This document shows positions 33,680 through 59,406 of a stretch of 64,000 nucleotides of DNA, piece by piece. The translations under genes were made by a program, and so were the position numbers. Numbering within the stretch: the first letter of the stretch is position 1; each line of letters opens with the position of its first letter. This DNA comes from Laetmonice hystrix (lineage: Eukaryota): contig OZ249436.1 in assembly GCA_965235115.1 (NCBI GenBank), forward strand, positions 28,026,001 to 28,090,000, given 5' to 3'. The notes below the pieces were generated by a model. That model saw nothing but the letters and a program-made list of their open reading frames with translations. It did no database searches and was not told where the DNA came from.

Positions 33680-34612
33680 TAACTCCACCAACCACTTCAT
33701 TCTGTAGGTTTACACTATCGTCTTACAGCAGAGCGGGCGGTATGATAACCAACTCCACCATCCACTTCATTCTGTAGGTTAACACTATTGTCTGACAGCA
33801 GAGCGTGCGGTATGATAAAACCAACTCCACCATCCACTTCATTCTGTAGGTTAACACTATTGTCTGACAGCAGAGCGTGCGGTATGATAAAACCAACTCC
33901 ACCAACCACTTCATTCTGTAGGTTTACACTATTGTCTTACAGCAGAGCGTGCGGTATGATAAAACCAACTTCACCATCCACTTTATTCTGTAGGTTTACA
34001 CTATTGTCTGACAGCAAAGCGTGCGGTATGATAAAACCAACTCCACCATCCACTTCATTCTGTAGGTTAACACTATTGTCTGACAGCAGAGCGTGCGGTA
34101 TGATAAAACCAACTCCACAATCCACTTCATTTTGTAGGTTTACACTATTGCCTGACAGCAGAGCGTGCGGTATGATGAAACCAACTCCACCATCCACTTC
34201 ATTCTGTAGGTTTACACTATTGTCTTACAGCAGAGCGTGCGGTATGATAAAACCAACTCCACCAACCACTTCATTCTGTAGGTTTACACTATTGTCTTAC
34301 AGCAGAGCGGGCGGTATGATAACCAACTCCACCATCCACTTCATTCTGTAGGTTTACACTATTGTCTGACAGCAGAGCGTGCGGTATGATAAAACCAACT
34401 TCACCATCCACTTTATTCTGTAGGTTTACACTATTGTCTGACAGCAGAGCGTGCGGTATGATAAAACCAACTCCACCATCCACTTCATTCTGTAGGTTTA
34501 CACTATTGTCTGACAGCAGAGCGTGCGGTATGATGAAACCAACTCCACCAACCACTTCATTCTGTAGGTTTACACTATTGTCTGACAGCAGAGCGGGCGG
34601 TATGATGAAACC
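33680..34612. repeat. 72-bp minisatellite, ~13 copies
   Basis: Unit AACTCCACCATCCACTTCATTCTGTAGGTTTACACTATTGTCTGACAGCAGAGCGTGCGGTATGATAAAACC; produces the 24-aa periodic ORFs. Confidence 0.95.
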
Positions 34613-35760: not shown

Positions 35761-38700
35761 TTATAAATGCGTATCTGCGATTGAAATTCGCCTCATTTCG
35801 TAGTTCGCCTCCGTTGCATCTGGTATCTCATTCGGGTTGGGCGGGTGGCTCATTTCGCTCGGGGTGAAGCCACCACCTGTTTTGAGCGCGAAGATGAGCT
35901 CGTCGAAGTCCTGTGAGTCGTGGTCCTCCACAGCGCGATGGGAGGGGGGCTTCGTCTCGACGTACGGCGGTGACGGGACCACGTAGACACTGCCGTTCAC
36001 TTGGGACCTTTTCACGCGTAGATTGTTGTTTACCGGGGAAATAGATTCGTGCTCCCAGGCCTATTAACAAACAACGACATGGTTAAAGATTGGTTGTTTG
36101 TTAATTTATGTAAATGGTGGCGTTGTTAGGGCGCCACCAATGGTATAAATGCAAAATGAATGCCGGTACACCTTAAAAACCAATTTCAATTTTTGTGCTT
36201 TAGTGTTGTTTTGAATGAAGTACATGCTCTACGGACACAGTGATATCTCACAGGTAATCGACAGCCAGTGTCTTGATAAGCGCAGAAAGCGCACATAGGT
36301 CCTACACATTTTAACATCATAAGATTTGTCCTAGTATAGTTTCGTTCCATTAAACCTTGAATCCCAAACTCTCAATATACACAATAATCCCCCCAAACAA
36401 GGCCCTATTTTTAATGGCTGTGCTCAAACCACCACACTTAGTGTCGCAGTCTGAATGCTCTAATTAAAGGTACCCCCAGTGTAAAGTAAGAAGCAAAACG
36501 TTGCTTTGGTAAGCGGCGACGTGACGGGACCGCCACCACCGTCTTGACGTACGTCATTAACGAGTGACGCCCGCGAGCCTTTGATGCTGCCGACGCCGAC
36601 AGAGGGCAGCACTGCTGGCGGGTATTTGAAGTCGTCAGCCTCGCTTGCGCTGTAGTTGATGGCGTACGTCGCCTTCTGTGGCCGGAAGCACGGCAGACAG
36701 GGATTTCTTAACACTGCGTACACCACCAGCGCATAGAGGCCCTGAAGATGATCATACAGTATTAAACAAACCTAGGACCGCAGGTAGACGACCGAATGAC
36801 AACTGAAACATGTCTTGTCATGGAACTATCGACTGATTAAAGTATGAACTTAACCAGCTCCTACTTCAATTTAATTACAAGGTGTGAATTACTCATTATG
36901 GACATAATATAATATATCATATTATATGATGACCGCGTATACATAAATCATATAGCAACGGAAACCTAGAGAACTTTACTATTATAATATTATGCATGGA
37001 CAATTCCTTTCATAACAAATTTCACATTCTGATCATAGTGATGATAAAACTCAAACACATGGATAAGAATTTAAAGTAATATCCTTCTAATCAAGAGCAG
37101 CATTAAATGACGACTGGGCCCTTTGGACACTAACCACTGCGACGTTAAAGATGCAGAAGAGTATAAGCATCCAGAGTTGGCTGTAGGCCATGTGAAGCCC
37201 ACCCCACAGCCACGTTAGGATCACCAGTGCCCACAATCCCAGCATAGTGCGGATTTCTGTGTAGAAAGTAAAACACAGACTTTACATTCCTTCTTGAACG
37301 TAAACACAATTCACAATTTCATTAACACTCCTCGCTTAAACGATATCTGCCTTTGATTATATTTGAGACTATATCCGTCTTCCGTATAGGGATGATTACA
37401 TACGATAAAGTGTTGACGTGAAAAGATCTATGTAAATCCAGCCTGAAGCGTTGGTCTAACAGGCCCGGCCCAATACACTTTCATTATACGACACAAGCGG
37501 AACCCCTCCGTTAAATCTTACATTTGCGCGCCAACAGAAATGGGTGTTTGTTTGAAAAGGGGGCGCCAGTATTGTTTCCACCAGTATCTACTTTCAGCGT
37601 GAAAAATTCATTAGCGTTACCGTGAATATTGTATCGAGAGCGATAGATGTCGTCATAGGCCTGCCACTGGGGGCTGAGCTGGAAGGCTTGGATGAAGACA
37701 ATACCGACCACCATCAGACATACGAGAGCTGGGACCACCACTCCTCCCAGCGCAGCGTAGCCGTTCACAATGAAACATCTGTCAAAGCAGGTGGAAACCA
37801 ACCTTTGTTATCCCGATCGTTTTACATCTGCACTCCTGCATGCATGCTCCAATCTTATAATAGGGTAATATTACCTAATTGCAAGTGATTTTATTTTTTA
37901 TTTATTTTTATTAATGAAGATACTTAAATGTAGGTTTAAATACGGGACTCATATTTGACGAATCATACAGAAATGTAAAGGTAGCCTGAAGTTGATGGTC
38001 TTTATGATTATTTTTAAACCTTATAATGATACTAAATTCACAAGACAACCTTAAATTTTACTACGACCAGGCCACGCGAAAATCTAAACAGTCCTTCCAA
38101 TACTGGCAGCAAATTCTTATCTAAATGATATTCATTACACACAAAATTTAATATTGGACTAATTGGGAGCCACTTTTTCAGAACCGAGGATCTGCCGAAC
38201 CAAAGATACATCCAATGCCTCGAGCAAATTGAAACCGAGTCTTCACACGCTTTTTTCACAACTAAAACATTAATTTTTAATTATAAAAACATTTGCCTCC
38301 CACCAATTCCCCCAATTAAAAGTCAATTCCCGTACTTTTCCAAATCAGCGCCAATCTCCGAGCTGACATTATTACATTACCGTGTATATAAGAAATATCC
38401 TAGAAATGACGGACGCTTCCTGAACTACGGAAGTGCGATAGAGGAAGAGAATTCCTAGAAACTACTTACATGTCTTCACTATTGTTGACGTCTCCATAGA
38501 AACGGTCGGGCGGCAGATCCGTAGCGTAACGGTAGATTACGTATGTGAGTACACAGAAGAGGAATACGGTCAGACCCGGTATACCTGGAAACGGTACGCA
38601 ATGCTACATTCTCACGTATGTGAGTACACAGAAGAGGAATACGGTCAGACCCGGTATACCTGGAAACGGTACGCAGTGCTACATTCTCACGTATGTGAGT

Positions 38701-41662
38701 ACACAGGAGAGGAATACGGTCAGACCCGGTATACCTGGAAACGGTACGCAGTGCTACATTCTCACGTATGTGAGTACACAGGAGAGGAATACGGTCAGAC
38801 CCGGTATACCTGGAAACGGTACGCAGTGCTACATTCTCACGTATGTGAGTACACAGGAGAGGAATACGGTCAGACCCGGTATACCTGGAAACGGTACGCA
38901 ATGCTACATTCTCACGTATGTGAGTACACAGGAGAGGAATACGGTCAGACCCGGTATACCTGGAAACGGTACGCAGTGCTACATTCTCACGTATGTGAGT
39001 ACACAGGAGAGGAATACGGTCAGACTCGGTATACCTGGAAACGGTACGCAGTGCTATACATTCTCACGTATGTGAGTACACAGGAGAGGAATACGGTCAG
39101 ACCCGGTATACCTGGAAACGGTACGCAATGCTACATTCTCACGTATGTGAGTACACAGGAGAGGAATACGGTCAGACCCGGTATACCTGGAAACGGTACG
39201 CAATGCTACATTCTCACGTATGTGAGTACACAGGAGAGGAATACGGTCAGACCCGGTATACCTGGAAACGGTACGCAGTGCTACATTCTCACGTATGTGA
39301 GTACACAGAAGAGGAATACGGTCAGACCCGGTATACCTGGAAACGGTACGCAGTGCTATACATTCTCACGTATGTGAGTACACAGGAGAGGAATACGGTC
39401 AGACCCGGTATACCTGGAAACGGTACGCAGTGCTACATTCTCACGGTTCCTATATAACACACTCACGACCATGAACGGAGAACACATTTAACATTTCCAC
39501 GGTAACATAAAACGTACAGGACACATGCAATGTTCCCTGCAGGAGTTCCCCTTTTTGGGGAGTTGAAGCACTTTGGGGGGGGGGGGGGGGTAGATGGAGG
39601 TAGGCCGTTTCGAGAGAGAGAGAAAAAACAAGAAAACGTTTTGGAGGGAATAACTGATTTTAGAGGTGATCCTCTCCCCCCTAAAAAGGGATAAGCCTGT
39701 AGGAAACCCTGACATGTATATTTCAATGTATACCCACTGCAGGACCCCCCAAGAAGCACCCACGCCACAGAGATATTCACAAACGTAACGTAACGTAATC
39801 CTCTCGTAAAAGACGTAGAATTATTTTAGTTCTTTGCCGTTTACTGGGAGGTAAAGAGTTAATACCCATATAGCACTACCAGTCATTTCACGTAATTCAA
39901 ATCTCCCAGCCCTGAAAACCCAGTCATGTAGAGGTTTTCTACATTATGCCGAGGAGCTTGAACATAAAACCCTCTTCCTGATCTAAAGGTCAAAATTAAG
40001 ATTCTCCATTTTCAGTTGGAATGTTCAGAAGACCTGCCATATTTACTCAGATGACAAACGAATGCTGCTAAAACGTAATATCAGCCCTCTCCATTAATTT
40101 ACGTCAAGTAATGCAATAAAGATAATGCGATTGAAGAACCCTGTAAAAGTGGCAATGAAAAACTATTATACCCACCCTCACTTAATAATCCAGAAAGGAA
40201 TGAGGACAAAAGCCTAATCTCCAAGCTGTAAAGAAACTACGCTGTGCCTGGATGACCTGGGAGGATGGGGTCTTTTTATATTTATACTTGAGTCATTTTA
40301 CCAACCCATATATAAACAACGCATTATAATACTCATTATAAGATTATAAAACCACTCGTTCTAAAAAAAATCCTGATCGACTCTCAAACTCGAACTTACC
40401 CCAGCCGAGCAGAAAGTAGAGGACGTATTTCCTCTCGGTGTGCTCGTCATTAAGGACCAAGATTTTCCAGAAGTTTATTGCCTTAAGTGGAAACAAAAAG
40501 GAAAGAATCAGGCAGTGCATAACGACCGAGGTCCCTGGAGCCAAAGTACCATCCAATCACACGTGTTCCGCACCGCCTGCCCACTGAACAGATGCCTGAC
40601 ATTTGCATAATCGAGGTACACTCGTCAAATGAGATCAATCTAATGTCTGATCTTATTACGTCTACTCCGTTCACTGTCACATTTTACTAGTGCCACTTCA
40701 AAGCGATTCCTTTGTTATTGTCTGCCTTTAAAACTTTCCGACGCGTTGTGCGCACATTATGACAGCATATTAACAATTATCTTCCTAACCTTCACGTTTT
40801 CAATAAGTAAAGCTTCCATAACACGGATACGTACAGTAATGGTTATAAATAACGCCACCATAATTATAATGGAAGTGTCTTTAATTATTCTTTACAAAAT
40901 GTTGTACTAGGAAATCTTCAATCACTGGAGAAGTCCTTTTCAGAAAAAATGTTTCGTAAGTGAACCTATCTAGGAACATGTTCACCTATACGAGAAGGGC
41001 CCTGCTTTTCCGAAACTTAAGTCCTGGCTTATGCTCAAGGTTACTAGCCGATTGGCTAGTCTAAGCAGACCAGCCGATTGGCTGGTCTAAGCAGACCAAC
41101 CGATTGGCTGGTCTAAGCAGACCAACCGATTGGCTGGTCTAAGCAGACCAGCCAATCAGAAGCGTTAAGCGTATGCAAGAACTGAAAGACAGATCTTTGC
41201 TGCTCCTTGGACGTTTTCCTCCCGAGAAAGCACTGAAACTTACCTGAGTCATCATCCAGGTGAACTGGGCCAAGAAGAAGTATTGTAAGAAGATAGACAT
41301 GACAATACAGCGGTAGTTATTGGCGGTGGGTGCCACGTCCAGCAGGTGACCAGGGGACAGGTAGGCGTCAATGACGTAAAGAAGCTGTGGAGTGTAAAAA
41401 GTTCACCAGATTACCGACTTCATTACTTGGTGACCGTTCATTAAACTGTGCACCGACACGTGCCCTAATTTCTGAATTAATTTTGCATATTTGACTGGAA
41501 AGGTCGTCACTGAATTAATGACCTGATTCTGGGGGTGTTCTTACAGGACTCACTCACCTCGGTTGCGAAGATGGCAAAGAACATGTGCATGAGGAGGTTA
41601 GCGGAGAACATGGCCTGGGTGATACAAACATGGTGAGCGAGTATGGCCAGAACGACGCCGAC
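35761..41662 (-). CDS. ADGRV1: ADGRV1 7TM and cytoplasmic tail exons with C-terminal PDZ-binding motif DTHL
   Basis: [74 protein letters not shown]; stop TAA at 35763-35761. Confidence 0.95.
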
Positions 41663-43074
41663 CTGAAACACCAAGAGAAATATCGAACTTTTCACAAGCA
41701 TCCAACAAGGAGTGTCACCGACTAATTTACCGAACACGATGGATGAAGGCAAACACGCACCACTCGATCTTTAGTTTGGTCCTAATGAATCATAACAAAC
41801 AAAGACAAACGAACAGCCTCGCGTATTTGTCAATACTCTGAAACCGCGCTCAACAGACCCCTTGGTTTACCTTAATAATTCTAAAGAAACCAATTTCGGT
41901 TTTTTTTTTATGCTTTGCACTTTGTAGTTAGCGTAGCACATTCGTCATTGTCTATTATCTTCAATAAGGCGTAGGAACTAAATTGTATTTACGAAAGTTA
42001 TTTCTGTAAATGATCACAGATATAAAGACGAAGATCGAGTACAGAACTGGCTTGACGTTTGACTAATGGTATCTCATATATCCCGATATGTTCATGTCCT
42101 TAGCCACCGGTGACTAGGTTCTTTACTTTGTGACTTCATTAAACGTGTATCTTCACATAAAGTGGCCTATCCTTCCCCGTGAACGTTAGCACTATTCCAG
42201 CTACGTCTGGCTACAGTTCATAATCTCCAAGAGATCTTCAATAATCTGTTCAGACTCTTGCTGTATAATCCATACGACTTATCTGCACTCAGTGGGGCAT
42301 TGACCGTCATCTTCCAGTCATAATCCTCCAATTTTAAACATCTACTTCTACCGACAGCGCTTCCTTCATTCACCCTCTGAGTTATTCACTATCCATGCAT
42401 TAATTACTCGCCAAGCTGTCATAGGCATATCAAACTTGAAATATTCTGTATGCCATTCTGTTCTTAGAAATCCATAAAAAGTTTACGAGCATCTCACTTC
42501 TGTCAGTATGTCGTAATCAGATTTAAAAATCATTTATTTAAATTAGTGTTGTTTATTGCTAATTACTTCTACCAATTCTAATTAAGATGCATCGAGCTGC
42601 CGCAATATGTGGAAATTATGTCTATTCCCAGTGCTTCGAATGAAAATCCTGCACATCGCCTACTTATTTCAAAATTACTCCCTTTCTGACAAAAACCGAT
42701 CAGATAAAACGAGAAGGAATTGAGATTCAATATAAAGGTAGCAATATATAGCAAACTGCCCTCTAACACCTAAAATATACACTCAAATATCAATAATATT
42801 TAATAATTAAATCTAAACACTCAAATAATACTTCACATAACTAAATTCCAACTTTCAGCCTACCCAATCATGAGCCTCTACATCGTGGAAGAATAGCTTG
42901 ATATATAGTTTTCAACGATAGACACAACTCATAAAACCGTATGCATCACCACTTTATATGTACATGAGAACACGTGTAATTCATCTTTCCCTCATACAGG
43001 CTGTAATAACAAAGACGCTGGGCTGCAAATATCACATTACTCAATAATGGTTATTACCACCAGTCGGAAGTTGG

Positions 43075-43137
<63 letters not shown>

Positions 43138-43326
43138 AAATATACAATAGGAAGTTGGGAGGTAGGAAGGAAGGAAGGAAGGAAGGAAGGAAGGAAGGAA
43201 GGAAGGAAGGAAGGAAGGAAGGAAGGAAGGAAGGAAGGAAGGAAGGAAGGAAGGAAGGAAGGGAGGGAGGCAGGGAGGCAGGGAGGCAGGGAGGGAGGCA
43301 GGGAGGGAGGCAGGGAGGCAGGCAGG

Positions 43327-43383
<57 letters not shown>

Positions 43384-43434
43384 AGGCAGGGAGGCAGGCA
43401 GGGAGGCAGGGAGGGAGGCAGGCAGGGAGGGAGG

Positions 43435-43479
<45 letters not shown>

Positions 43480-46400
43480 GGCAGGGAGGCAGAACTTTAG
43501 GGAGGAGGCAGGGAGGCAGGCAGGGATGCAGGCAGGGAGGCAGGCAGGGAGGCAGGGAGGCAGGCAGGGGAAGGACGGAGGCAGGGAGGGAAAGGAGGGA
43601 GGCGGGGAGGGAAAGGAGGGAAAGGAAGGAAGCAAAAGGAAGGAAAGGAAGAGAGAATGAGGGAAAGGAAGGAAGCACGGAAGAAAGCAAGGAAGGTTTT
43701 GTGTCTTTGAATACAATAAGTTATCTGAGACTCTCACCATGCAGATAAAGCAGGAGATGTGGAACCAGACGGGGTAGCCGATCAGGTCTGGGTTCTTGAC
43801 CTGTGAGATGACCGCGTAACTCGACATGTGTTGACACTGACAGTCGACGAAGTTGTCGATGGCGAGGGCCAAGTTGTTCACCACCACACACACGTCGCCA
43901 CGACTCGTCCACTGCTGAATGTCCTCGTCAAAAAACACACATCTGAGGAGGATAGCAAACACCACATCATCAATTCAGGATCATCTGAGGAGGATAGCAA
44001 ACACCACATCATTACAGTACAGTTTTACAGTACATCGCGTTGCTTAAATCGAAAATAGCGAGAGTGTTTTGTTTACTCCAGATAACTTTGGCTAAAAATC
44101 TATCTCGAAGGTGTGTGGGGAGGGGGCAGGTCAGCTTTTCTGGTGTTCACATATTTAAAAAAAAAATACTTGGGAAATCTAATCAGGCAAGTAAACAGAG
44201 CTATGGAACCTAATTATTCCCCTTCAGCACGCGCGCTTCTCCCGTGGTGAAGTTTATGCGGAAGTTTATATAGTTCTGGGATTGTTGATCAGAAATCAGG
44301 CAGTTGGATCTTTACGAGAATCTGGTGATGGGTTAAAATTCTTTCGGGCACAAAAAGCGGGGTTATTGGTCCGACTGTCACTCGCAAACAGTGTTCTCCC
44401 ATTAGGGGCATAGTCTCACAGGGAGCACGTGAGAGCGGGTTTTAGGGGAGGTCCCACCAGATGGGTTCAGTTTTCGGGGAAACATCCAGTAAAAGTAATT
44501 AATCAATACAATAGACTAATTGCGGCGTTATATAAGCTACTATATATGCTTATTTTAAAAGCACCTTCGTTACACTTTGACCAGCCAATCAGAAGAGTTA
44601 GTTTAAGTAGAACACTTACTGAGCCCGTTTGGCCGGGACCCTACGGTCAGCTGTGTGGATCCTGTAGGTGGCCGGCTGTGACAACAGCCGCGGCGCCTCC
44701 CCCCGAACTCCCGCCGACAACACCTGCAGTAAACAACACAACAACATCACGGCAATGCAACAACGTCACAGACTACTGGGGATAAGGTCAATAATAATAT
44801 ATCTGTGTGGGTTTTTCTAAAGTAATTATTATATCCTTTTTATCAGGAGGGCTAGATACATATGGCGCAAGTGCTCCTCATATTGTCATTATCAGTTGAT
44901 TAAAAATAAGTCACAAAAATACAGTAATCTGGTGCATTTTTCTTGACTGATTGGCTCTGATAAGAAATACGTGTGCACCTGTTGACCTCAATATCTAATA
45001 TTGAATAATTTGCGGTCACCGCAATCATTACCCCCCCCCCCCCCGCCATCACTGTGACTCTCATTTCTTGCCTCTTCTTGATATCTTTCTACTGGCAATG
45101 AAAGAACCATTATACTTACTCTATTGTTCAGCAGCGTTTCCGATCCCCGAAGGAACCAGAGCGAGGTTGAATATTCCACGAACGACACCGCCATACACTA
45201 AAATAAATAAACAATGGTTGTTAGCGTCTCTCAATAAGAGTAGGGTCTATTTAATCGGAATAAATTAACTTTAATTATAAACTTTCCTTCAATACTTAAT
45301 CAACACAACTCTTCTGCCAAAGAACTTCTAATCAACCCCGGATTTTTTTAAGTCACAATTGGCATGGAATTCCATTACGTACATTTGTCACTGTGCATGT
45401 ACATTGAGTTATCAACGGTGAACAGATAGTCGTTATCCGACACAATGATTATCAAACACCAAGTCGATATCTCCCCGTCACCCAACAGCTTTCCATTCCA
45501 GCATTCTTTTTCAGTAACAAAAAATTTCAAAGCGCATTGATTATACATGCTGCTTACGACTCGGTATAAGTTGGGATAGTTTTAGCATCAGGATAGATAA
45601 TTTTCTGGATACAAACCTTGGGATTTGCCGAGTTACGTCCATGATCTTGAACTCTCAGCAGATTCTCCGGTACTATATAATTATCTTGATTACGACCCTG
45701 ATAACGGTAACTGTTGATTGCCTCAGGGTACCACTTGGCGACGGCAAACTGTACGTGGGGACACTCAGGCGAATAGATGCTGTCAAATCAAACGGAATCC
45801 CATTTACTCCACCTTGGCACATCAATGCCAACTCTCTGTTCTCCCCTTTTTATCTAAAAGGATTACCTTTATTCTATTTGTTTTTTTGCCCCTTTTATTC
45901 CTCGCAGGGGCTGCCACAATTCCCTGCATAATGGGGTTGTTCATTTATCTTTTCCATCGTAATACCACCCATATCATAGGATCTCTATATAGTGCAAGGC
46001 GTGATCGACGTATTTGATACTGGAATTAAACAAGAGATGATTGATCCAAGGTCTGAAGCTATCACTGTCTATAATATTATCAGTCCTTTGTGCATGGAAA
46101 AATGGACTTTACTTCTTTTGTATTTGTTTTCCACAGGACATAAAAATCACGATCAATCGATTGCAATTTCAGCGGTATGTTGTATTTCTCTACTGATAGA
46201 CAGCTAAATAATTTCAAACGGCATAGAACCGTAACGCAACCGATTACACTTTCACATATCTAGAGAATAAAAAAAGATGACCTATAAATGATGGTGGTTG
46301 CTTACAATACGAGGTTGCTATGTAAAACAGGCTTTCCTGCAGGCCCGTTTTGGGGGAGACTACGATCAGTTATTACCTCCCCAAAGTTTTCTGGGGGAGG

Positions 46401-49400
46401 GTCTACCCCGCTAAGTGCCTAAATCCCCCCCCCCCACCCACACACACCAAAAGGCAGAATCCTGCAGGAAAGCCCACAATACCAGCCCAATATAATAATA
46501 TCAAGTCCTAATCGCTATCAGTTGAAAAACAACTCTCATTTATACACGGCCACAATAATGACGACAAGCTGCCACAATTATGTTAAAACACTCGTCCTCA
46601 GATTGAGGGGTACGGTTGTAACTCACAGAGCGGAGGCCGTGCAGCACGTGTCGCACATGTAGGCCACTAAATACGAGTAGGCGAACCGCTCGAGGAGACG
46701 ACTCAGCTGCCAGCGCCCTCTCGTGGCGTCGGCACGTTCTGGGTCGAGCAGACGACAGAAGACGGACATGATACTGGCGCGCGTTCCCTGCAGCAGTCTG
46801 TAAGATGAACGGCTGAAACTGTATCCATAACCTTCTCTCTATCCGTTAAACAACAGGTTTTTGTGAAATTCAGCCAACAAACCAACACACCCGCGCCTTT
46901 CCCATTGTAAAGTCGTAAAATGACTGATTTGAAGTGTAAATAATCAAAATGTTGCGATTTCGGAAAAGTGTGCAAAGTGGTCGCTCAGAAGAAAATGAAT
47001 AAACTTAAACCAACAAAAACTATGAACCAGGCGTTACTTCTTTATTCGACAGTTGTGATATTACATTACCATAGCGTCTAGACGGTAATTACAGGTGGAC
47101 CGTGATGAAAATAATTAAAAAGAACACATTGTTTCTCCAAAATAATTTAATACAAAATCCATTATTATCTGGCACGACGTCAAGTAGTAAACGTAATATC
47201 GTCATGGACACCAGCACAGGTATTAGCATTTTTCTGGTTAGGTCTGAGCGCGGCGAATTTCGGTTCGAGTTAAAACATTCGCACACGATCGTAATTGCAA
47301 TCTTCCGTCTTTTTTCTGCTCTGTTTCCCTCTTGTTTTCTTTGTCTATTTCTTTTTCCCCCTCCCTTTCTTTCGGTAAAGTCCTAGCTAAGATAAAGCCC
47401 TAGCTAATCTCTAATCTCACTGCGATTAAACCGAGCTAAGTGATCTAAATAGATTTCCTGTGATTATACCATCAGACCTTGCTGTATCTGCTCATTACTG
47501 GGCTAAACCGCAGGTTTCTAACGGAGACCTTTTGTAAACGGTAAAATGATCTCACAACTAGTATTCTACACACCCCGAGTTATGTTTGTACGAGGCTAAC
47601 AGTCACCCAACATGAATAATCTTTTATCTCTGCTAACGTTAGTGACTCACATTGAAATATACCTTCAAACACCACATACCAAAAATAAAACATTAACATG
47701 GAAGCATCCCTGTCTATCCTACTTTACCGGTTCATTCCGGACAATAAGTTGCCATAACATGACAGCCCGGGACTAAAGGATTGAGTTAGACGAGGGTACT
47801 CACGGTGTGGACTCGGCCGTAGTGATGATTTGGTCGATGATATTCTCAGTGATGGTTAGTTGGCTCGGAGTGATTGGGCCTTGGATGGCGGCTTGCAGGT
47901 CGGCCATCAGTCTGTCACAGAATATAACACATTCATGTCAATAATCGAGCAATCGTAGTCAGGTGAAAACTCTCATACCTTCTTGTGAATGTAGAATAAC
48001 CTTAGGCCAAAAAAAAAAGAATTCCCCGTTTCTGGTCCGCGCGCTTACCATTGTAGCCAGCTCTCACCCCAAAAAAAACTTTAACCAAAAAAAAGGAGAA
48101 AAACCCGTGTGTTCTTCGGACCAGAAACCGGGAATTATTTTTTTTGGCCTTAGCGATCTTTTGTTGCATCCTGTCGTTCATTATTACTCCAGGCACTTTT
48201 TCACTCAGGATTTTATCGCTGAAGGTTATATAGCCTGGTCCCCGCGCCTACCATACGCATCCGCTTGATGTTAGGCCCGGTGATGGCTAACAGAAAGCTG
48301 TAAAACGGAAGTGGTGGCCTCCAAGCACTTCCGCCTCGGAGCTAATCACTTCCGCCTCCGGCGTTAACAGAGTGATCGACTTCTGCTTGGAGCGTGGCCG
48401 GGAGTGGCCAACATGCGACTGCGTATGCAGACCGTTGCAGGTGTGGGGACTGGTGACGCTATGTTTACATCCAGAAAAACGAGGACATTTAACACTTGTA
48501 TTTTAAAGGGATTGACGAAAATATTTGTGTCTTGTTGGAGAAATACGGGGGGTACGGAACTATACCTCGTTTGCGTCCATGTTTTCGATGGGCCAATCAC
48601 AACGCTTGCTTCGATTGGCCTACGCCAGGCTCTATATACGAAGTTAATATAGAGCTGGGGACCCGGCTAACAACAACCGGTGCAAAAGTTCCCCCCCCCC
48701 CCCCCGCCGCCATTTTTAAATTTGACTTCACTGGATGAGATCGTCAAAGGCATCTAAAAGTGTCTTTACAAATCATAGATGTAAAATAGAACATGTAGAA
48801 TATGTACATGTAACATAAGTTGATTTATTACAGTCTAATTGCATACAAAGTTTGCTCAATACAGATCTTACTGATTACCAAATGTCACTTTGTCCCGTTA
48901 TCACCGATTTCTACCTCACTACATCGGCTGCTCTTGTAATTAAGACCGACTACATGCCACGTCACTTTCCTCGCGACACGTTCCAAGACGAACCCCCAAG
49001 GTCGTCTCTTTGACCCTTGACCTCTACCTACCCGTCAATAGTGGCATTGTCAAGGTCTCTCTGCGTCCCTGGCCAAACATCCCACAATGCCACGTCTCCA
49101 GCGTTCACGATCGTCACATTAGCCCGAGCCTTCCCCAGCCTACAATCAAGCAACACTCTAAATTCACCACACCTACGCAAAATCAGGTTTTGTCTTGCAA
49201 TGATTTTTTCTCATGACATTTTACAATTGCCCGCAGGTATTTTTTTTACACTCTATGGCATCACGAACAATCGTTGTATCTGTAACCTACATCGGTCCAA
49301 ATATAATGTTTCTTGCTATAGGTTAAAATCTGCCGCAGTATTTAGGCTATATGTATTGTATTTTCTTACATTTTCAGCAAATTCCCAAGGCAGTCATTAC

Positions 49401-52400
49401 TTTCCACGACTCTAGGAGCCGTGGCGCAGGACTCATGAAATGGCCCCAAACACTAGGACTACCTTCTCACTGTAAGAGTCTTTATTAAACGTCCATGATA
49501 GTTATATGATACAAGCTAGAGTCGGACGTGGCAGAATGACGGCTAGAGTAGCTGAGCGTTGACACTATACTTACTCGGCGCCGTTCGTAACATCAGTGAG
49601 TGTCACCCGGAACAGTTTAGGATACGGGTTGTCAGACGCCTTGGCTGGATCCAATGTTATGTCAACGCTTTGTGATCTCTGGCAACAAAAAAATCACCTG
49701 GATTTATCAAAAGATTGAAGGGGAACGAAAATCAAAAGACAAAAAAATTAAACGATCTACAGATGTTATGGTTATTAGACTTGAAATATATTATGCCATA
49801 CTGGAGTGGTATCAGACCTACACCTGAGTATAGTTTGAAATTTAAAACAAAAAAACTGCTGTGCGCCTTGGGGTGTCATGAAAGGCCACCATTTACCATT
49901 CATCATTCGAGCTTCCAGGAGACATCGTTTGAAGCGTGAAGTTTTATTAGAGAATATACATGGACCAGAAGTTGGGCACATGGCTAAAAGTACGCAGACT
50001 GAGAATGTTTTGAATGCTACAGCTGCTAGATCCAAAAAAAACGTCCGTTCTGCCGCTTTCTCTTTGAACGCCTCCCAAAGACACCTTGAGTAAAATCAGG
50101 GCTAGTCCATTACAGCAGGTGAGTGAGTGATTTGTTGTTTTACATCCTATCGGCCATCGTCACGACCAGAAGACGTTCTACACGTATTCAATAGGTAGGG
50201 ATTATGAATATACTATCATGAATAAACCTGCAGTCCTGGATACGATGCCCTACTCCGTTCGAAAAGCGGAAAGTGTTCTTTAACATACACACAATGGTTC
50301 CTATACCGCCGGTCTTTCTCACCCCAGTCAGGAGCACTGGGCGCTGTACTCTAGGCACGTGATCGAGATGGGATCTCTGAATTCCTAACCCCCACCCCCT
50401 CACTCACCTGTCCGGGTACGAAGGTGAGCTCACTGAAGTAGCTATTGAAGTCCGCTCCGTCCAGGGCTCGGTAAACCCGCAGTCCGGCGATGATGTCAGG
50501 GCCTGGGCCGGGTAGTTCCTGGGCCAACACTTTCACAGATACTCTCTTGTTCCGGTAACCGACTCTCTCAACCTCGAGACGAGCCACACGGGTCGCCTTG
50601 TCTATGTACATAACCCTGAAACAAACGACCACAACATCCAGCAAGTCAGCCGCAATCATTCAATCTGCTTGTAGCACACCTGGGCCCGGTTTTTTTGTTT
50701 ATTTTTCCACCGTGAGCAAGGGTGAGCATGAGCATATTCTCACCGTTTTCGTGTTTTTTTGTTGTTGCTTTTTTCCATGAGGCGTGCTCATGGTGAGCAA
50801 GCTCGCGGAAAAACACCCCAAAAAAAACGAAAATAGTGAGCAAAACGGTGAGCATGAGCTTCTGCTCACCCTTGCTCAGCTCAGCTCACGCTTGCTCACG
50901 GTGGAAAAGTAAACAAAAAAACCGGGCCCTGGAATATTTTCCTCAACGGGATTTTCCTCAACGGGGAAGACAGAATGATCATTTTTCAAAACAAAACTTT
51001 GATTTTCTTTTTCCATTCAGGACGTATTGGGACGCGAAATCGAGAGATACCACACGTACCTTAAGAAATAATGCAAACCAGTTGCAACCTTAGCAATTCC
51101 CCGATATTTAGCACTTTTTTTATGTGATCACTGACAACCCATTTGAACTAGTTATCTACCTTGACGACGCAGCAAACTGCACCAGACCGTTAGGACTATC
51201 GCTGGGTAGGAGTGTGACATCGGCGAACCGTCTGGAAGGATCGATCTGCGCTCCAAGGCTCACCTGGCTTAGCTCTATCACAAACGATGTTTGGTTTTGT
51301 GGTGTCTGTCAAAATAAGGACAGTAAACACGTAAAATGATAGCTCCACTTATCGAGTGTACCTGAAGGTTATCTATTAAACCTTCACCATTTAAAGGCTC
51401 ACTCTAACTTCATCCAAGTACGAATCCCTGGTAAAGTAATATTTGCAAATTACTGGAATAGTGAAAAATCTGCTGTGTTCATGTAAGTGTGCTATTTCCC
51501 ATGTATGGAATTCTATGATAGCGACACCCCTCTATATGGAAATCGTTGTTATAGGCCATTATGAGTACATATTATCATTATGTACTCGTAGAAATATCCT
51601 CGGCTCTCACTCTGACTTTATATCTGATTTCGTATTACCTCTCTTTGAAACCTTTTATCTTTGCTTTATTATTCACCCTAAGTACCAATATGTCCTTGAC
51701 GGATAAAACCATCCCCTTCAAAGTCTCCCTCCTATATAACTTGCACCAGTTGATGGTGACCGACCCCAAGTCTATTCTCGCCCAGTGTACCGATCATAGT
51801 TGGCGGCTAGAATCGACAGATCGTTTAACATGACGGACTGTGCTCAGCGAGGTGTGACCGTCCCGACTGACCTGGTCGTTAACAAGTTGGACGTCGAACA
51901 CACAGAACCGCTGTCCGGCGGGACACTCGACGTCATCCTTGACGGTGGCCAGCTGTGCCGTCAGGTCCAGCTGGTCATTCTTCACCTGCCCGTCCTCCCT
52001 GCTGATCCTCGCCTCCCAGTAAACCTGGTACGACAAATCCCCCCCAACACACACTTTACGTTCGGTTAGACGCAAACATGAATGGGTTCAAGGCTCCAAC
52101 CATCCAGCCTCTACGATCTAATCATATGGGGGCTCAGCCATACACTTATCAAGACTGTGGACCACGCTGTTCGTCGTCAGATACATTCTGGTCAAGACTG
52201 ATCGTCAGGAATTGACTTGGGCACACAGTAAGTGTTGTTTTAAACTGAAAGGTTGCTATCAGAATTATACCATTCAGCGGTAGCCCATACACACTAGCCC
52301 ATCATGTTACCAGAACCTTTTTTGGTGATGCATCTTTTATGTGAGCACGTCTGCTATATCAGTAAACAAAGGAAGGATAGGAAAAGGAGAAGAAGACGAT

Positions 52401-55400
52401 GAAGATGATAATGAAGAAGCAGAAGCAGGAGCAGTAGGAGTGGGAAGAGGAGGAGCAGGAGAAGGAAGAGAAGGTAAAAGCAAATATCGAGAAACATTAA
52501 TTTAATTTTCTTTTCCTATGGCACATACGCAATTCGTTTTCATAATACCATCACAAAGTGAGATTGATAAGGATGGTAGAGGTTCGCAGATTACAGAGAT
52601 ATTCCAGACATGGGGGCTGGTCCCCTAACTGACCGTCAGCGCGCCAAACGAGGCGTTAAGTCTCTCTATGGTGAGCGTGGCCGGTCGGCCCACGTCCTCG
52701 TCTGCCGTCACTGCGGTAGAGTTGGCTTTGTGGAAACCAATCCAGCCATTCCAAAAATCATTTCGTCGAATTGTTATGGATGCAAATCCCTGCAATAAGA
52801 CATGACAATACCTCAGTGCACACTTCCCTAAAGAAACGTCAAGGACTGAGAAAAGTCGCACAAACAGTTCGGCTTTGTCAACACGGATTCTTTGAATTTT
52901 CGACAAAATCTACCGCCTATAAATCATGTATTATGACCATGTTTGTGAAGTCAGACTTTTATCTGGCGGGGATAAAATAGACTATCCAAACTGCATTAAT
53001 TCCTAAAAAGGGAGGAAAAACCGAACGAAGCCGCCCACACGCGTTGCTGCTGTGCGGCAATAACCCGCCAATGTGGCCTGGACGCCGTGCAATGTTACAC
53101 CACTAGCAAACGTTGTGAGATTGCGATGAACCGACCTTCCTGCCATTGTCTCGACCTGGCTCAGCGACTCGCACGCCTTCCGTGCGGGAGACGAGGTAAA
53201 CAAAGAACACTTCGTCATCCTCCGGGTTCCTGTCGTCTAGGGTGAAGAGGCGCACCGTCTGCTGCGTCTGGCCCTCCTGTACATGTTAACGACCACCAAC
53301 ACTTAATGGGAACTGTCAGTCAGCGCCGAAAAAACAAGTCATCGCTTCTTTTTACCTTCACCGAGGAAAGACTTGAATAAATTGAGCTTTTTTTTCTTAT
53401 CGCGGAGTGGGTAAAAATACGAAAGAAATAACAGAAAAATAGAAAAGTAATCAATAGAAAAAAACAAGTTTGGTTAGAATGATTATAATTTGGTGGATGA
53501 CTGACCTCGAATGTGACGGTTCGGTCTAGTGTCTGGTAGTCCTGGCCAGCCAAGGCCTGGAAGCTGATATCTCGGTTACCAAGAACTTCACTGATTGTCT
53601 CGTTTGTACGACTTGGTGCCACGCCAACAATACTGTCCCACGATTCGCCCCCGCCGATTGTACGAAGTTGTACACTTATAGTTCCGAATGTACCACCTGT
53701 AGTAGAAATGGTTCGTTCACGGACGCTGTGAGATCTGAAGCTGCCGCGGTGGCCACATTTACGGGCTAATGAGAGGTGTTATTTCTCATTACAAGAGTCG
53801 GTATTTAATTACTGGGGTAATCAAAACGGCATGCCCGGAGGTAAACCCTCATAGAATCATACTGGGATCTGCCTTGGTAAAGACAATCAAAATCAGTTCT
53901 GATGAAACCTGGCGCTTTAATTCCTCTTACAACCTAAATGAAAACCTTCTCCTCGTTTCCATTTGCAGTGTCCCTACAGTAAATCTATACTTTGTGGTAC
54001 CTAACACAGATATGGGGGTTCAGGAGTAACAGAAAGGAGAATGAAAACATTTTGTACTTCTCATATACGGTACATTTGGTAAAAGGAACTATCTTCCCTT
54101 TTTCTTCCACTTCCATTTTTATCCTAAATGACACATCATTAGCCAAGATGACAACTAATCAGTTAGGTTGACTTGTTATCTCAGTATAAGAAAGCAGCAT
54201 ACCGGTCCTAAGGATGCTGAGTTCTACAGCTCCAGGCTCCGAAACCTTGCCATCACTCTCTCCCGAGTTAGCCACGACACTGACCACCCCATACGGGTCA
54301 TTGTTACGGCTGATAGTCACTTTGGCCGACGAGTAAAGTCTACTCAACCGCGGAGACACGTCTGAAAGATACAGCCAAAATATAAATGACCGATTCATAA
54401 CACTGCACCACACCTTGCAGTACAATACTTTGGTTAGTTGGAGCATATTTTGCCAGCTCACACAAACCGTCACAAAATGTTAAATTATTACATACGTACA
54501 TTACAACGTTTCTAAAACGTTCGTTAAACGTCCTTAGCTGTGTGGTGTAAAATGCTGACAAGGAAAGCCATCACATTTACATATTTATAAAATGTTTAGT
54601 CTGGTTATGATTTTGGCTTACTTTCGCTTAGGGCTCCCGAATGGCCGGTTACACAAGACAGGCTACTTAACAAACCTACCGCATTTAATATTCTAACTTT
54701 TTACAAACCGAGCCTGGGGACTTGTTTGTCAGAGAGCTCTTGCCACATTGAGAAATTTTATTAGATGCAGTTTATAATCTGAATAAGACACAACTGCTCA
54801 AACAAAGTACTGTTGCGTAATTAAACAATGTAGGACAGTGATATGGAATCCAACCATCGGTGGTTATTGTTGGCACAACGTACCTTGTTCAGTACCAGTG
54901 GGTAAACGCAACACTGAAGTAAAGTTAACATAAAAATATTCATCTTCTTCCGGAACTCTGTCTGCTTGGATCTGTGGAAACGAAATTAAATAAAGATCGG
55001 ATCGGAAGAATTACCATAAATCATTCTGGATAGTTCTCATAATAACTTGGTGTAAGAAGTCCAAAATGATGTCTCCATAACTGGGGCCACACAAATAGTC
55101 GCCCTTTTGTGAACAGACATTCGTACTGAGCAATTTCTTTTTATTTGCTTGTCTGTCTAAATACTAAACGTTTGTGTCATTTTCTGGGCTCTGCTTTGAA
55201 GACTACGCCTTCAATAAAATGTCTAACCTTGTATTTTTTATGAAAGAAGAAAGAAGCACTTTCCAGCCAAGCATCATAGTTGAGAATCTAGCAAGGCCCT
55301 CGAGACATCTTTAGCCGTAATTTCTTTCTGCCTTGAAGGGTCGAAATGAGTGTCTACACAATCTTACTTGTATGAAGATTGAAGACCGGATCTGGAGTGC

Positions 55401-58400
55401 GTCCATATTGACAGCCCCGTTCTCAATGCTATCGTAGTCAGACCCACCGATGGCTGTGCCATCAAAAGTTCGGTACCGAATTTGTATGGCGTCAAGGGAA
55501 CCGTAGAGCCGCTCTATCTGAAGGGTCACCTGGTGCACAGAAAGACATCATCGGTAAGTGTTATATCGGGGCTATAAATTAACTGTGACGGGAGAAATAT
55601 ATACCGGTTCGTATGGATCAATTTACACTTCGGCTTTAAATCGGATACATTTAATAATACAGCGCTTGTATGGGAGCTGCAGGATTATCTATCGAAATGG
55701 AAGCTGGTATACATTTTTTATAAGTTTACATAGGAGAGGTAATGTAAAGTACATTACACGTTCATCACTAATAAAAGTGAACAAAACAAGGAAAAGAGTT
55801 TCTTTCTGGTTTCTCCAATCACGTTAACGTGAGCCGACAGCAAAGTAATACAGAATATCATAAAAATATATAACAACAAATATACATGTATAATCAGAGA
55901 TGCCAACTTATGAGGATGAGGATTTCTAAATCTGGAAATTCCTAATGATGTCCATTTCTAAGGATGAGAATTCCTCATGTGCCAAGTGCTAAGAAAAGTG
56001 CGAGCACTGATACACGCTTTTAGTGTTTCGCTGAGTCAATACCAAGTAGGAACTAAGATGAGGTAGAATACATCTATAAATTAATTTGGTGACTCACATA
56101 AAAGACATTTTCACAGCCAAAACTAATGAATGGCCACATCTAAAACAAGTTTTCAGTCTGCTATTATATCGGGGCTTTGAAATGCCAAAATCGTAATTTT
56201 GGTTCAATTAATCCTAATGGCGTAATGATGACCCTAAAAGCGTAATCATTACGCCAATTTCTTAATGGTTGGCATCTCTGTTAATAATTGAAATAAATAT
56301 AATTGTAGCTCACTGAATGCAGATTATGCTTCATCTTCAGGATAGTGTATGTATACACCCGTGCTCGATTTTAGGCCTAATTTTATAAAGAGTTTCTAAT
56401 GAGCGAAAACCGTTCTTGCTAACCTCTAACTGCCTTTGGTCGGGTTCCTGAACACTGACACTCCGCGAGCCGGCCACAAACCGAACCAACCCGTACGGTT
56501 CCAAACGGACCGTTGTACGTCCCGGCCACAGGGTGGCGCCACCCAGCGTCTGTGAAATGGGCGTCCGTGGGAGGTGGAGGGCGAACAACTCCGGAACCTG
56601 CCGAGGACTCAGCTGAAAATAGGAAAGTAGGTCGGATATAAAATTTGTTTGCGGCTTTTTTTTATGAACTCACTCTACAATATATTAACACATTTCATGG
56701 ATATAATATTATTATATCCATGAAATATCAATAATAAGCACACTGTTCACCGAATGTTAAGCCTGGTGTTTCTTATATCAAGATCTCTGTTTTAATCCAT
56801 CATATGTTGTAGGATATCAACTGTCCTGTTATACATGGTGTTTCCCTTGATTGTAATAAATTCAGTTTTTCCATTGAACTGTGCTTGCATTCTAGAAAAT
56901 GAACACGACAAACCTACCCCTTGTTATTTTAAATATGGCCTCGTCTTAACGTAAAAACAGTCTAATGTTTATTAATGACGATATTTTTTATACCTTTCTA
57001 ATTAGATACCTCCTTCTAAATTAGTACGCACGGGAAGATCTACATACATGCAGACAGACGAGGAAGGTATATAATCAATATGTCTCGATGTAATTAGACT
57101 AATTAGGATGTTCGAGGGAGGCGAGGAGTTGGAATGAGGGAAGACAAGAGATGATTTTCTTATTATTGTCATCAAATTCACGCCTCTCAGGTAACCTGAG
57201 TATTGCCAAGACGCATATAGCAGCGCACCTTGGTGAATGGAGTGTCTGTGTGGTGTGTAGGCGACGCTTCCAGATATTCTTCTTCTCCTTCCTCCATGGG
57301 TGAGAGCCAGGGGGCATCCCGGACCCCATTTTATAAACCTTAACTTCTTGCTTAACGTTTCTGGTTGACTGCTCTCAGCAGACCAGCCAACCAGAAATTT
57401 TAAGCTTAAGTTTAAGTAAAATCTTAAGTTTTGAAAACCCCGGTGGCTGGTGTCATGATTTCATCCTCCTCCCCATTGTGACGACCCGAATTACTAAACG
57501 ATGATGTTCTCCCCACCAGAACTCCCTATGTTGACTCGGTCCTACCCAAACACTTAACTCCATCCTGAACCGGCCTTTTTCCGGCCTCATATTTACCTGG
57601 ATCTTGAAGCTGGTACTGTTACGGCCGTTCACCATGGAGACGGTGCCCGACTGTTCCGACATCTGGCCCTGAGCGTACCCCTGCGGCCTCTCGCTGACTG
57701 GGTACCCAGTCACCCAGTCTACCTGCAGGCTCCCGTACGAACCCCGTCGTACGATAGCCACATCCACCAAGTTGGTTTCTGGTAAAGTAAACACAGTGGA
57801 AACGTTCCATGTCAGTCTAAGTCTTTGGTTGAAACGAACACGTTTACTCCAACATGACGTCTCAAACATACAATCGATGACACTCAGTTACTCCCGTGAA
57901 AAAAAACAACATTCCAAGCTTGTCCTTTTATTAGACACCCCCCTCGAAGATATACACATTAGATAAAATAGAGACATTATTTTTCATGATTTAACTCCAA
58001 GGATCCCCACCCTTATTACACGCCTTAACTCTATCTTGCTGAGTTAACAAAATTATCAACAAAACTACGCTGACCTATGTACACAAGAATTCATGACTTC
58101 TAGCTTGGGCTGTGGAAAGATGTATTTTCCAAACACTAATAATTCCTTCTGATTCAGCAAGTCTTTGATCTTGTAGATGACTAACGTCAAAAAGTCGGTC
58201 AAGTGTATTATGTGTACACGACTTTATTAATCTCACCTTCATCTACAGTGAGGATTATGTTGTTGAATCCAACCTCGCTGTTAGCCGCCTCTGGGGGCAC
58301 GACGATCCGTGCCACTGTACGCCCAGCGATCAGCTGAGGCGACATCGTCACTGAAACCACCATTCTCATATTGAACCTTCCCTCTCTTCTGTACAACACG

Positions 58401-59406
58401 TATATCAACTGGATATATCACACCGTGATATTGTACCCTTAGGGTCTAGACCTCTCTCTGTGAATGTAGGTGATGGCTTTGGGAATGAAGCGAGACAGTG
58501 AGAACTGATAAATGCTATAAAATATATAAAAGAAAGTGAAAATGCTTTGCGTTTGATTATTTCCCCCCCAGCTGTCTCTGGATATTCTGTAGTGTCTCTT
58601 TTTTTGCGATGAAGTGTCAACATTATCATATAGGTCTCCACAATACTTCTTTTGCATTTTGGCGAAAGACATTATACGCCTCCGGGTGCAGAGCGTCAAA
58701 TAATTAGATTATTTGAAGGCTACAGGCGTATCTTAAAATATACAGCACAACCTTCGGCGGGGAAGACGCAACTACCGATATTATCAATCACGAGACGGAA
58801 AATTACAATAAAAAGTTATAAGAGAAATTCAATATCGCTAAACTGCAGTTTACAAAACTGAAGTTCTTAGCGTCACAGGAAGCCAAATATCGTGGCTACT
58901 GTAAAAGTAATGCCACAGCAATCTATGAACATCACGTATGTTCTTGTAAATCTAGAATTAAAGCAGCTGATTCACCTAGTGATGGGATTTACATTAGTAG
59001 TCCTCATACTGCCTCTAATAACAGTCTTTACTAGTTCATTTTAACTTCATTAACCTCCATAAAATAGTCAACATCTGTGTACAGAACGAAACATGTCCTT
59101 TTTACAGAACTTATGACAGCTGCACGTATGGATGAACACATGAATAAATATAAATATAAAGATGGTTAGAATGAATGTATATGTATGAAAGAATGAATGA
59201 TAACAGATCTTTGGGTTTGTAATTTGTAATTTGCCAGAATTACCTCCAACCCCGATGAAGGAGGCACTGGTGAGGGTCGCTGTGAAGGAGGAACCCTGAG
59301 CTAGACTGATGCTGTCGTCGATGTCGATGAGAGTGACGCCGGAACGCGATCCATCCTCAAACTGTACGGCTCCTGAACTTGGTACGTACGAGATACCTAA
59401 CTCTGT
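35761..59406 (-). CDS. ADGRV1: Adhesion GPCR V1 (GPR98/VLGR1) orthologue, 3' part: 29 coding exons, ~1434 aa; 5' part lies beyond the window
   Basis: Exons in transcript order: 59406-59244, 58350-58237, 57778-57597, 56612-56424, 55529-55368, 54971-54884, 54361-54203, 53696-53506, 53276-53136, 52789-52634, 52024-51872, 51305-51160, 50615-50408, 49678-49575, 49139-49032, 47911-47804, 46797-46627, 45779-45617, 45197-45120, 44723-44620, 43942-43738, 41662-41558, 41384-41244, 40481-40400, 38584-38470, 37778-37621, 37256-37135, 36741-36553, 36060-35761. All GT-AG and they join into one open frame of 4305 nt. Calx-beta repeats, GPS, 7TM, and tail motifs [13 protein letters not shown] and [10 protein letters not shown] that I recognise from vertebrate ADGRV1. 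Confidence 0.95.
38540..39445 (-). repeat. 75-bp tandem array (12 copies) of an ADGRV1 3' splice site plus the first 44 nt of the exon
   Basis: Minus-strand unit GTGAGAATGTAGCACTGCGTACCGTTTCCAG|GTATACCGGGTCTGACCGTATTCCTCTCCTGTGTACTCACATAC; the last copy is the real exon 38584-38470. Confidence 0.95.
39528..39711. mobile_element. Short MITE with 5-bp TSD ACATG; related copy at ~46328-46475
   Basis: Ends CAATGTTCCCTGCAGG / CCTGTAGGAAACCCTG, ACATG on both sides. Confidence 0.65.
41048..41160. repeat. 26-bp tandem repeat (4x) of a self-complementary GATTGGCTGGTCT/AGACCAGCCAATC core inside a MITE-like remnant
   Basis: CCGATTGGCTGGTCTAAGCAGACCAR units; related sequence at ~57322-57443. Confidence 0.75.
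43075..43696. repeat. Compound polypurine microsatellite (AAAG)n-(AAGG)n-(AGGC/AGGG)n
   Basis: Direct reading; source of the low-complexity ORFs at 43037-43965. Confidence 0.97.
43738..47911 (-). CDS. ADGRV1: ADGRV1 GAIN domain and GPS exons, start of TM1
   Basis: [11 protein letters not shown]...C...[12 protein letters not shown] fits the GPS consensus (cleavage at H-M|S); [14 protein letters not shown] segment. Confidence 0.92.
48231..48669. mobile_element. MITE-like element with TAG...CTA termini
   Basis: TIR TAGCCTGGTCCCC / GGGGACCCGGCTA; no clear TSD; superfamily not assignable. Confidence 0.55.
49032..59406 (-). CDS. ADGRV1: ADGRV1 Calx-beta repeat exons
   Basis: Motifs such as [97 protein letters not shown]. 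Confidence 0.92.
50679..50932. mobile_element. Palindromic PIF/Harbinger-like MITE
   Basis: CTG|GGCCCGGTTTTTTTGTTTATTTTCCACCGTGAGCAAG ... CTTGCTCACGGTGGAAAAGTAAACAAAAAAACCGGGCC|CTG; 3-bp CTG TSD. Confidence 0.85.
55895..56280. mobile_element. MITE with CAG...CTG ends
   Basis: TIR CAGAGATGCCAAC / GTTGGCATCTCTG; flanks ATAAT / TTAAT. Confidence 0.75.

Follow-up and report, generated by a model that had tools for sequence, protein, structure and literature searches.

The window, meaning the whole stretch of 64,000 nucleotides that was analysed, contains the 3′ part of ADGRV1, the orthologue of an Usher-syndrome gene, on the minus strand, and the gene extends past the window. A minisatellite of 12 head-to-tail units lies across one of its intron/exon boundaries. 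The features of this locus, with the means by which each was identified, are as follows.

35761..59406, minus strand: 3′ part of ADGRV1, 29 exons, 4305 nt (domain search, homologue comparison, gene model)
40400..40481, minus strand: upstream 82-nt exon (gene model)
38539..39445, minus strand: 12-unit minisatellite, with a length of 75 bp in ten units and 77 bp in two (repeat finding and unit alignment)
38616..39413, minus strand: eleven decoy copies, each with an acceptor, a 44-nt exon piece and a weak donor-like TAC|GTGAGA, 3.8 bits (frame, alignment, donor scoring)
38585..38615, minus strand: intronic part of unit 12, the probable authentic acceptor, 7.5 bits (from the reading frame)
38470..38584, minus strand: authentic 115-nt ADGRV1 exon encoding TM4 and extracellular loop 2, with donor CAT|GTAAGT at 38469, 8.2 bits (frame, homology, donor scoring)
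37621..37778, minus strand: downstream 158-nt exon encoding TM5 (match to the solved ADGRV1 chain 9fte_A, E 7e-13)
43940..44012, minus strand: GPS-exon acceptor present twice, as identical 31-nt copies at a spacing of 42 nt (sequence comparison)
62552..64000, minus strand: array of a 42-bp unit, at least 34 copies, reaching the window end (repeat finding)

The host gene had been named as ADGRV1 in the first-pass annotation, and this identity was borne out by the match to 9fte_A, by similarity to homologues and by an intact gene model. Calx-beta repeats, a GPS, a secretin-type 7TM region and a tail ending in DTHL were found, and Pfam searches of single exons detected GPS (E 2e-6), 7tm_2 (E 6e-5) and, below cut-off, Calx-beta (E 0.002). 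The best similarity was to ADGRV1, with 43% identity to P0002 over 1025 columns and 33-40% identity to the homologues P0003-P0005 over about 1450 columns. The model runs for 1434 codons to a stop with no internal stop codon, and none of 15 differences between public contigs and the assembly fell in exons, which made up 584 of the 2088 nt compared (P = 0.007). The gene looks functional. A scan of metagenome contigs found no orthologous genomic ADGRV1 locus; 6 loci from 596 candidate stretches were dropped as non-ADGRV1, none of them matching P0002 (tblastn, E ≤ 1e-3).

Each unit of the array consists of the final 31 or 33 nt of the intron followed by 44 nt from the 5′ end of the TM4 exon. A 75-bp unit of 31 + 44 nt had been proposed, which holds for ten units; the other two are 77 bp, with 33 nt of intron. 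Units start at 39444, 39369, 39292, 39217, 39142, 39067, 38990, 38915, 38840, 38765, 38690 and 38615, and the acceptor TTTCCAG|G was found at exactly the twelve positions predicted, from 39413 to 38584, at spacings of 77, 75, 75, 75, 77, 75, 75, 75, 75, 75 and 75. TRF run on the window returned a period of 75 with 12.0 copies, 97% matches and a score of 1722, and no 14-mer of the 75-bp unit was found elsewhere in the window, indicating that the array did not arise by chance. The same 44 exon bases follow each acceptor, after which copies 1 to 11 run into GTGAGA and copy 12 into the real exon. Units differ by ~1.8%, at four variant sites interspersed among the copies, indicating that the array is young or homogenised. 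Differences that allow copies to be traced are one C/T site, at which copies 2, 11 and 12 have T, and the sequence after base 44. The upstream copies generally encode the predicted GIPGLTVFL(S/F)CVLTYVRM, copy 6 being an exception that reads GIPSL. At one codon Ser replaces a conserved Phe in 9 of 11 decoys (eight and copy 6), while Phe is kept in copy 12 and, at the homologous site, is present in 8 of 14 homologues, with Ser in 0 of 14. Long open reading frames on the plus strand across the array were attributed to a unit length that is a multiple of 3.

The intron following the exon at 40400..40481 measures 1815 nt as assembled and would be 986 nt long if the added copies were removed. Reading from this exon, the frame remained open only through the last acceptor, at 38584, which leads into the 115-nt exon and its donor at 38469; this agreed with the first-pass annotation, and the frame of the whole gene model is likewise intact only via copy 12. 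When the upstream copies were joined to the same exon, 9 of 11 gave the expected immediate TAG after ...TYVRM, and copies 1 and 5, in which a 2-nt insertion shifts the frame, reached a stop 12 codons later. By a manual count on the translation, the stop of decoy products comes where the fourth hydrophobic segment ends, past the GPS exon, consistent with the truncation in TM4 that had been suggested. The donor-like junction after copies 1-11 does create 44-nt pseudo-exons, and these frame-shifting pieces proved unproductive: whether the real exon was included or left out, none of 2970 combinations of one to six pseudo-exons gave an open frame, and any second copy, also in combinations of 7-11, falls in a frame containing TGA. 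An array of alternative coding micro-exons was rejected on the same count. Skipping of the 115-nt exon also shifts the frame. In the predicted decoy products a premature stop precedes later exon junctions, as is characteristic of poison exons in AS-NMD.

Splice sites were scored with matrices resting on 28-29 predicted sites, that for donors being built from the gene's own 28. All 12 acceptors scored 7.5 bits. The decoy donor is weak yet within the range of real donors, 2 of 28 of which score below it and one of which is GTGAGA preceded by G; this overlap in range counts against a neutral reading of the array. A branch-point-like TACTCAC at −37 of the copy 12 acceptor derives from the exon tail of the previous copy. 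RNA structure was rejected as the acceptor selector (three folds, z = 0.68, −1.02 and −0.73), and Rfam gave 0 matches within 35000-45000.

The array is a head-to-tail minisatellite whose unit spans an authentic boundary and keeps AG/GT, with 12 of 12 acceptors of equal score, and we consider it probable that this is a tolerated 'mirage' minisatellite that is ignored by splicing. Its origin may lie in one slippage or unequal-exchange duplication at a 3-nt microhomology (CGT) present at both ends of the 75-bp piece, followed by ordinary minisatellite turnover. As local sequence does not distinguish the twelve acceptors, position would decide between them, and copy 12 probably wins because it alone adjoins a strong donor (8.2 versus 3.8 bits) across a normal-sized exon. 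The exon would be recognised across its length, the strong donor lying 115 nt downstream for copy 12 only. Decoys would be disfavoured by a weak donor at 44 nt, compared with a shortest real internal exon of 78 nt, and the 31-nt gap between decoys would be too short for splicing, compared with a shortest ADGRV1 intron of 173 nt. Judging from the sequence, exon definition is the likeliest selector, as had been suggested, with 26 of 28 ADGRV1 introns exceeding 250 nt. An exon-centric proximity rule under long introns is described in the available part of PMC9225289, in which competing 3′ sites overall favour the upstream copy and long introns lower this preference, a reversal not being stated in that part. 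Rare wrong products should be removed by NMD, as their premature stops lie several exons before the last junction. If splicing does ignore the decoys, the array is surviving intron filler.

The first-pass annotation had proposed that copy number tunes ADGRV1 output. For this to occur, a sizeable share of transcripts would have to splice to one of the upstream acceptors or include a 44-nt pseudo-exon, and then be lost to NMD, so that receptor dose would be set by copy number. Repeat number in F7 may affect the level of factor VII, although the literature consulted did not show this. The equal scores of all 12 acceptors and the premature stop in every wrong product tested fit such leakage, which is plausible because two pseudo-sites are used beside the real one in the human donor arrays of 6-16 and CBS intron 13, according to the available part of PMC1557585. 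Against this, the amphioxus mirages give normal mRNA in the accounts available (PMC3087553, PMC3902484), and the ADGRV1 array has no mark of selection, its units differing by the ~1.8% noted above. The tuning claim was thus unsupported, published mirages leaving splicing undisturbed (PMC3087553, in part), and we regard leaky decoys as unlikely.

Other duplications at exon edges were present in ADGRV1. The upstream copy of the GPS-exon acceptor leads to an immediate TGA. The 42-bp unit comprises an exon end (GRVNYTVVYDQ) and the start of the intron; CAG|GTCA is kept in four copies and the donor G is lost in 29, and the real exon end probably lies at or beyond the window edge. An exon-edge position was found for 2 of 3 other close duplications in the gene (P about 0.017), an excess over the neutral-placement prediction that counts against a neutral reading. 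An active array would be one in which the authentic acceptor has been severed from sequence upstream of −31 and given a new branch-point-like heptamer, which copies 2-12 have and copy 1 lacks, copy number sets the productive ADGRV1 message, and the three exon-edge duplications reflect a junction-biased duplication process; we think this combination improbable.

GT forms the first two bases of the exon, so that the acceptors read CAG|GTATAC and AG|GT is present at all 12 copies. A decoy splice would recreate a G|GT junction that could be re-spliced to copy 12, yielding an exact normal mRNA, and in a human minigene 6-16% splicing was observed at duplicated AGGT motifs (available part of PMC3265369). 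However, the recreated junction scored 1.5 bits (genomic form 3.0; 1 of 28 real donors lower), which is not the strong donor of a recursive splice site, and exons starting with GT are common in ADGRV1 (6 of 29), making a self-correcting array very unlikely.

An assembly artefact had been named as a refutation and was looked at in public contigs from three runs (X1, X2 and X3) of one sample, possibly the assembly's own source. In X1 and X2 the head-to-tail junction was read through by contigs of 76 nt, and in X3 loose ends carrying the junction sequence were present, indicating that a pure artefact is unlikely. The count of 12 is the assembly's, and no contig spans the array. Unit depth relative to flank depth was 7.9-9.2 in X1 and X2 and 14.8-17.6 in X3; for the modal unit, an array of 12 copies would be expected to give 7.7, depth not being a copy number. 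Contigs of X1 and X2 contained exon 38470..38584 with no exonic differences, while all three runs differed from the assembly by a 6-nt indel near 38144. With the repeat junctions and raised depth in the contigs and the interspersed unit differences on one side, and the indel, the single sample and the lack of a spanning contig on the other, it is highly improbable that the animal lacks the array or has a far shorter one. Equally hard to credit is a damaging array in which copy 1, nearest the upstream donor, wins and leaves this ADGRV1 allele largely null. In its favour, intron-centric proximity points to the upstream 3′ site (PMC9225289, in part) and only copy 1 retains the ancestral intron context. 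Against it, the ORF is intact, none of the 15 differences lies in an exon, copy 1 lacks the yUnAy motif that copies 2-12 have within 50 nt, and depth suggests, roughly, that an array is present on both haplotypes.

If neutral, the array adds a clean mirage example from outside amphioxus and offers a natural test bed in which twelve locally identical acceptors expose the effect of position alone on 3′ splice-site choice. Such arrays can mislead gene prediction. Were decoy use sizeable and tied to copy number, the minisatellite would be a dosage dial on the orthologue of an Usher-syndrome gene, and the importance of the array would be greater if the exon-edge bias were true genome-wide.

A search of the literature, mostly without subscription papers, found no annelid splice-site minisatellite and no invertebrate ADGRV1 tandem-repeat case. 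The array is probably a mirage outside amphioxus, a structure of a kind already described in that animal; this and the following comparisons refer to the available parts of the papers cited. Amphioxus mirages occur in Adh3, troponin C, the globins BflGb6 and BflGb9, and PGBD5 (PMC3087553, PMC3902484), with units of 10-160 bp, a range that includes the 75/77-bp unit, and with undisturbed splicing, normal mRNA and length instability (PMC3087553). They share with the ADGRV1 array tandem units across an intron/exon boundary, kept splice signals and interspersed variant units, and BflGb6 also shares the acceptor-side layout of intron 3′ end plus exon 5′ part but has 3-6 copies rather than twelve (PMC3087553). 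The ADGRV1 host, unlike amphioxus, is probably no cephalochordate. Human CBS 844ins68 is also a duplication of an intron end and exon start (52 + 16 nt) with stops in the upstream copy and a normal message from the downstream acceptor (PMC7490669, PMC11017215), the upstream exon piece being excised (PMC7490669); it differs in having two copies and in being a presence/absence polymorphism with mRNA evidence (PMC7490669, PMC11017215). Identical splice sites are likewise repeated in the 37-bp VNTR of human F7 intron 7, where the copy adjoining the real exon is used, and similar arrays exist in 6-16, CBS intron 13, lamin B2 and PDGF (PMC1557585). In those donor-side arrays the first copy is authentic (PMC1557585), whereas the ADGRV1 array is on the acceptor side and its last copy is probably the authentic one; the F7 layout is matched instead by the 42-bp array at 62552-64000. 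Finally, as in intron gain by AG|GT duplication (PMC3265369), a tandem copy leaves a piece that might be precisely excisable, but the AG|GT of ADGRV1 is an existing acceptor, so that no new intron position is created and the existing intron only grows.

The exon that follows the array exon matched the solved ADGRV1 chain 9fte_A (E = 7e-13), and a homologous Littorina protein, P0002, mapped exon by exon to the reverse strand. The ADGRV1 gene model extended from 59406 to 35761 on this strand, with 29 exons, 4305 nt and a single, terminal stop, and was 43% identical to P0002 over 1025 columns. Twelve tandem 3' splice sites had been placed before the TM4 exon (38584-38470) by the first-pass annotation, and their positions proved exact: TTTCCAG/G occurs on the reverse strand at 39413, 39336, 39261, 39186, 39111, 39034, 38959, 38884, 38809, 38734, 38659 and 38584. 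TRF returned 12.0 copies with a period of 75 and 97% matches. Units were 75 bp (10 of 12) or 77 bp (2 of 12) long; they differed pairwise by 1.8% on average and had four interspersed variant sites, and a 3-nt microhomology was common to both array ends. No 14-mer of the 75-bp unit was found elsewhere within the window. The array is a real feature and was correctly described.

The assertion that only the last copy leaves the frame open also held. Joined to the upstream exon (40481-40400), copy 12 (38584) alone stayed open, giving a 115-nt exon that runs to the 38469 donor, while the 11 upstream copies, termed decoys, led to an immediate stop (9/11) or to a stop 12 codons on (2/11). Chains of one to six pseudo-exons (44 nt each), whether the real exon was included or not, gave no open frame in any of 2970 combinations, and omission of the exon altogether also shifted the frame. 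At the one exon site commonly variable among units, copy 12 encodes Phe and 9 of the 11 decoys Ser; the residues in 14 homologues were Phe (8), Leu (4), Tyr (1) and Cys (1), with no Ser. The residue at this site points, weakly but consistently, to copy 12 as the copy under selection.

Splice sites were scored with matrices built from the ADGRV1 model's own predicted sites. The acceptor scored 7.5 bits in all 12 copies. The real donor (CAT/GTAAGT) scored 8.2 bits versus 3.8 bits for the decoy donor (TAC/GTGAGA), a score below which only 2 of 28 real donors fell. The decoy exon is 44 nt and the gap between units 31 nt, as against a shortest exon of 78 nt and a shortest intron of 173 nt in this ADGRV1 gene, where introns longer than 250 nt are the rule (26 of 28). 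With long introns, splice sites nearest across the exon tend to pair, according to the accessible portion of PMC9225289; copy 12 would probably be chosen because of the strong 38469 donor across a normal-sized exon. Two observations count against such a choice: in the same portion, the upstream 3' site is preferred overall, less so with long introns, and in the available text of PMC1557585 pseudo-sites are used in two human donor arrays. Leaky decoys that tune ADGRV1 dosage appear unlikely. Folding gave no support for RNA structure as the acceptor selector.

Two features were missing from the first reading. In copies 2 to 12, a branch-point-like TACTCAC lies at -37 or -39, supplied by the exon tail of the previous copy; no such motif was found within 50 nt of the copy 1 acceptor. 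The exon also starts with GT, and because of this a wrong acceptor choice could be repaired by re-splicing. The donor recreated after a decoy splice, however, scored only 1.5 bits, which makes two-step self-correction of this kind very improbable.

Three public runs (X1, X2 and X3) covered the region, all contigs of one sample that is possibly the assembly's source, and were compared with 36500-38615, a stretch containing the last unit only. The head-to-tail junction was crossed by 76-nt contigs of X1 and X2, and X3 contained loose ends carrying the junction letters. Unit depth relative to the flank, which is no copy number, was 7.9-9.2x in X1 and X2 and 14.8-17.6x in X3, compared with 7.7x predicted for the modal unit from the assembled array. 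None of the contigs spans the array. A tandem array is well supported by these junctions and depths, but the count of 12 is the assembly's own; an assembly artefact is highly improbable. Near 38144 (intronic), 6 assembly bases were absent in all three runs; either the assembly slipped here or the contigs lost an allele. Contigs and assembly differed at 15 sites (11 substitutions, 4 indels), all of them outside the exons, which occupy 584 of 2088 nt (P = 0.007, uniform placement). A damaging ADGRV1 allele is just as improbable as an artefact, and the array is probably a tolerated minisatellite.

The region is repeat-rich, with additional arrays:

29368-29650, further array, 32 bp
19577-19705, further array, 13 bp
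41046-41153, further array, intronic, 26 bp

Some 1.1 kb past the ADGRV1 stop, at 33676-34613, is a 72-bp minisatellite of 13 copies, for which no exon link was found. An intronic stretch at about 50640-50930, in which 30-nt segments are repeated internally and seem to be inverted, may represent a small MITE-like element. Facing the ADGRV1 3' end is a gene for a Cys-loop ligand-gated ion channel (about 8700-20700, forward strand), with matches to Pfam Neur_chan_LBD and Neur_chan_memb in three ORFs.

Exon edges elsewhere in ADGRV1 were also duplicated:

43940-44012, reverse strand, GPS-exon acceptor duplication, two identical 31-nt copies, 42 nt apart
62552-64000, reverse strand, donor-side mirage, 42-bp unit, at least 34 copies, made from an exon end

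The upstream GPS-exon acceptor is in frame and meets TGA at once; the pair looks like a two-copy stage of a mirage, a tandem minisatellite spanning an intron/exon boundary described in amphioxus (PMC3087553). In the 42-bp array, whose real exon start lies beyond the window, the donor is kept in 4 copies and the donor G is absent in 29. With the array's YDQ form attached to exon 59406, the alignment to the homologous protein P0006 was gap-free at the junction; across 6 homologues this form outscored the terminal copy in 3, fell below it in 1 and tied with it in 2. At 62551, the degenerate last copy closes with a perfect GAG/GTAAGT, a possible alternative donor that would shorten the exon by one codon. 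Scanned for duplications, the gene span yielded five loci, and two of these belong to the 42-bp array. With the studied array left out, 2 of 3 duplications touched an exon edge (P about 0.017), a post hoc value from three events in which the 42-bp array is counted by inference.

No published account of this ADGRV1 locus was found in a literature search largely without subscription journals. In amphioxus, mirages leave the mRNA normal and are unstable in length (PMC3087553); the accessible part of PMC3902484 agrees with that account. The array has all three structural features of mirages; judged by sequence, it appears to be of this known kind, to which it adds a member. CBS 844ins68, in which 52 intron and 16 exon bases are duplicated and the downstream acceptor is used (available portion of PMC7490669), likewise duplicates an intron end plus exon start, and the F7 VNTR, as far as the available text of PMC1557585 describes it, is the donor-side mirror of the ADGRV1 acceptor array.
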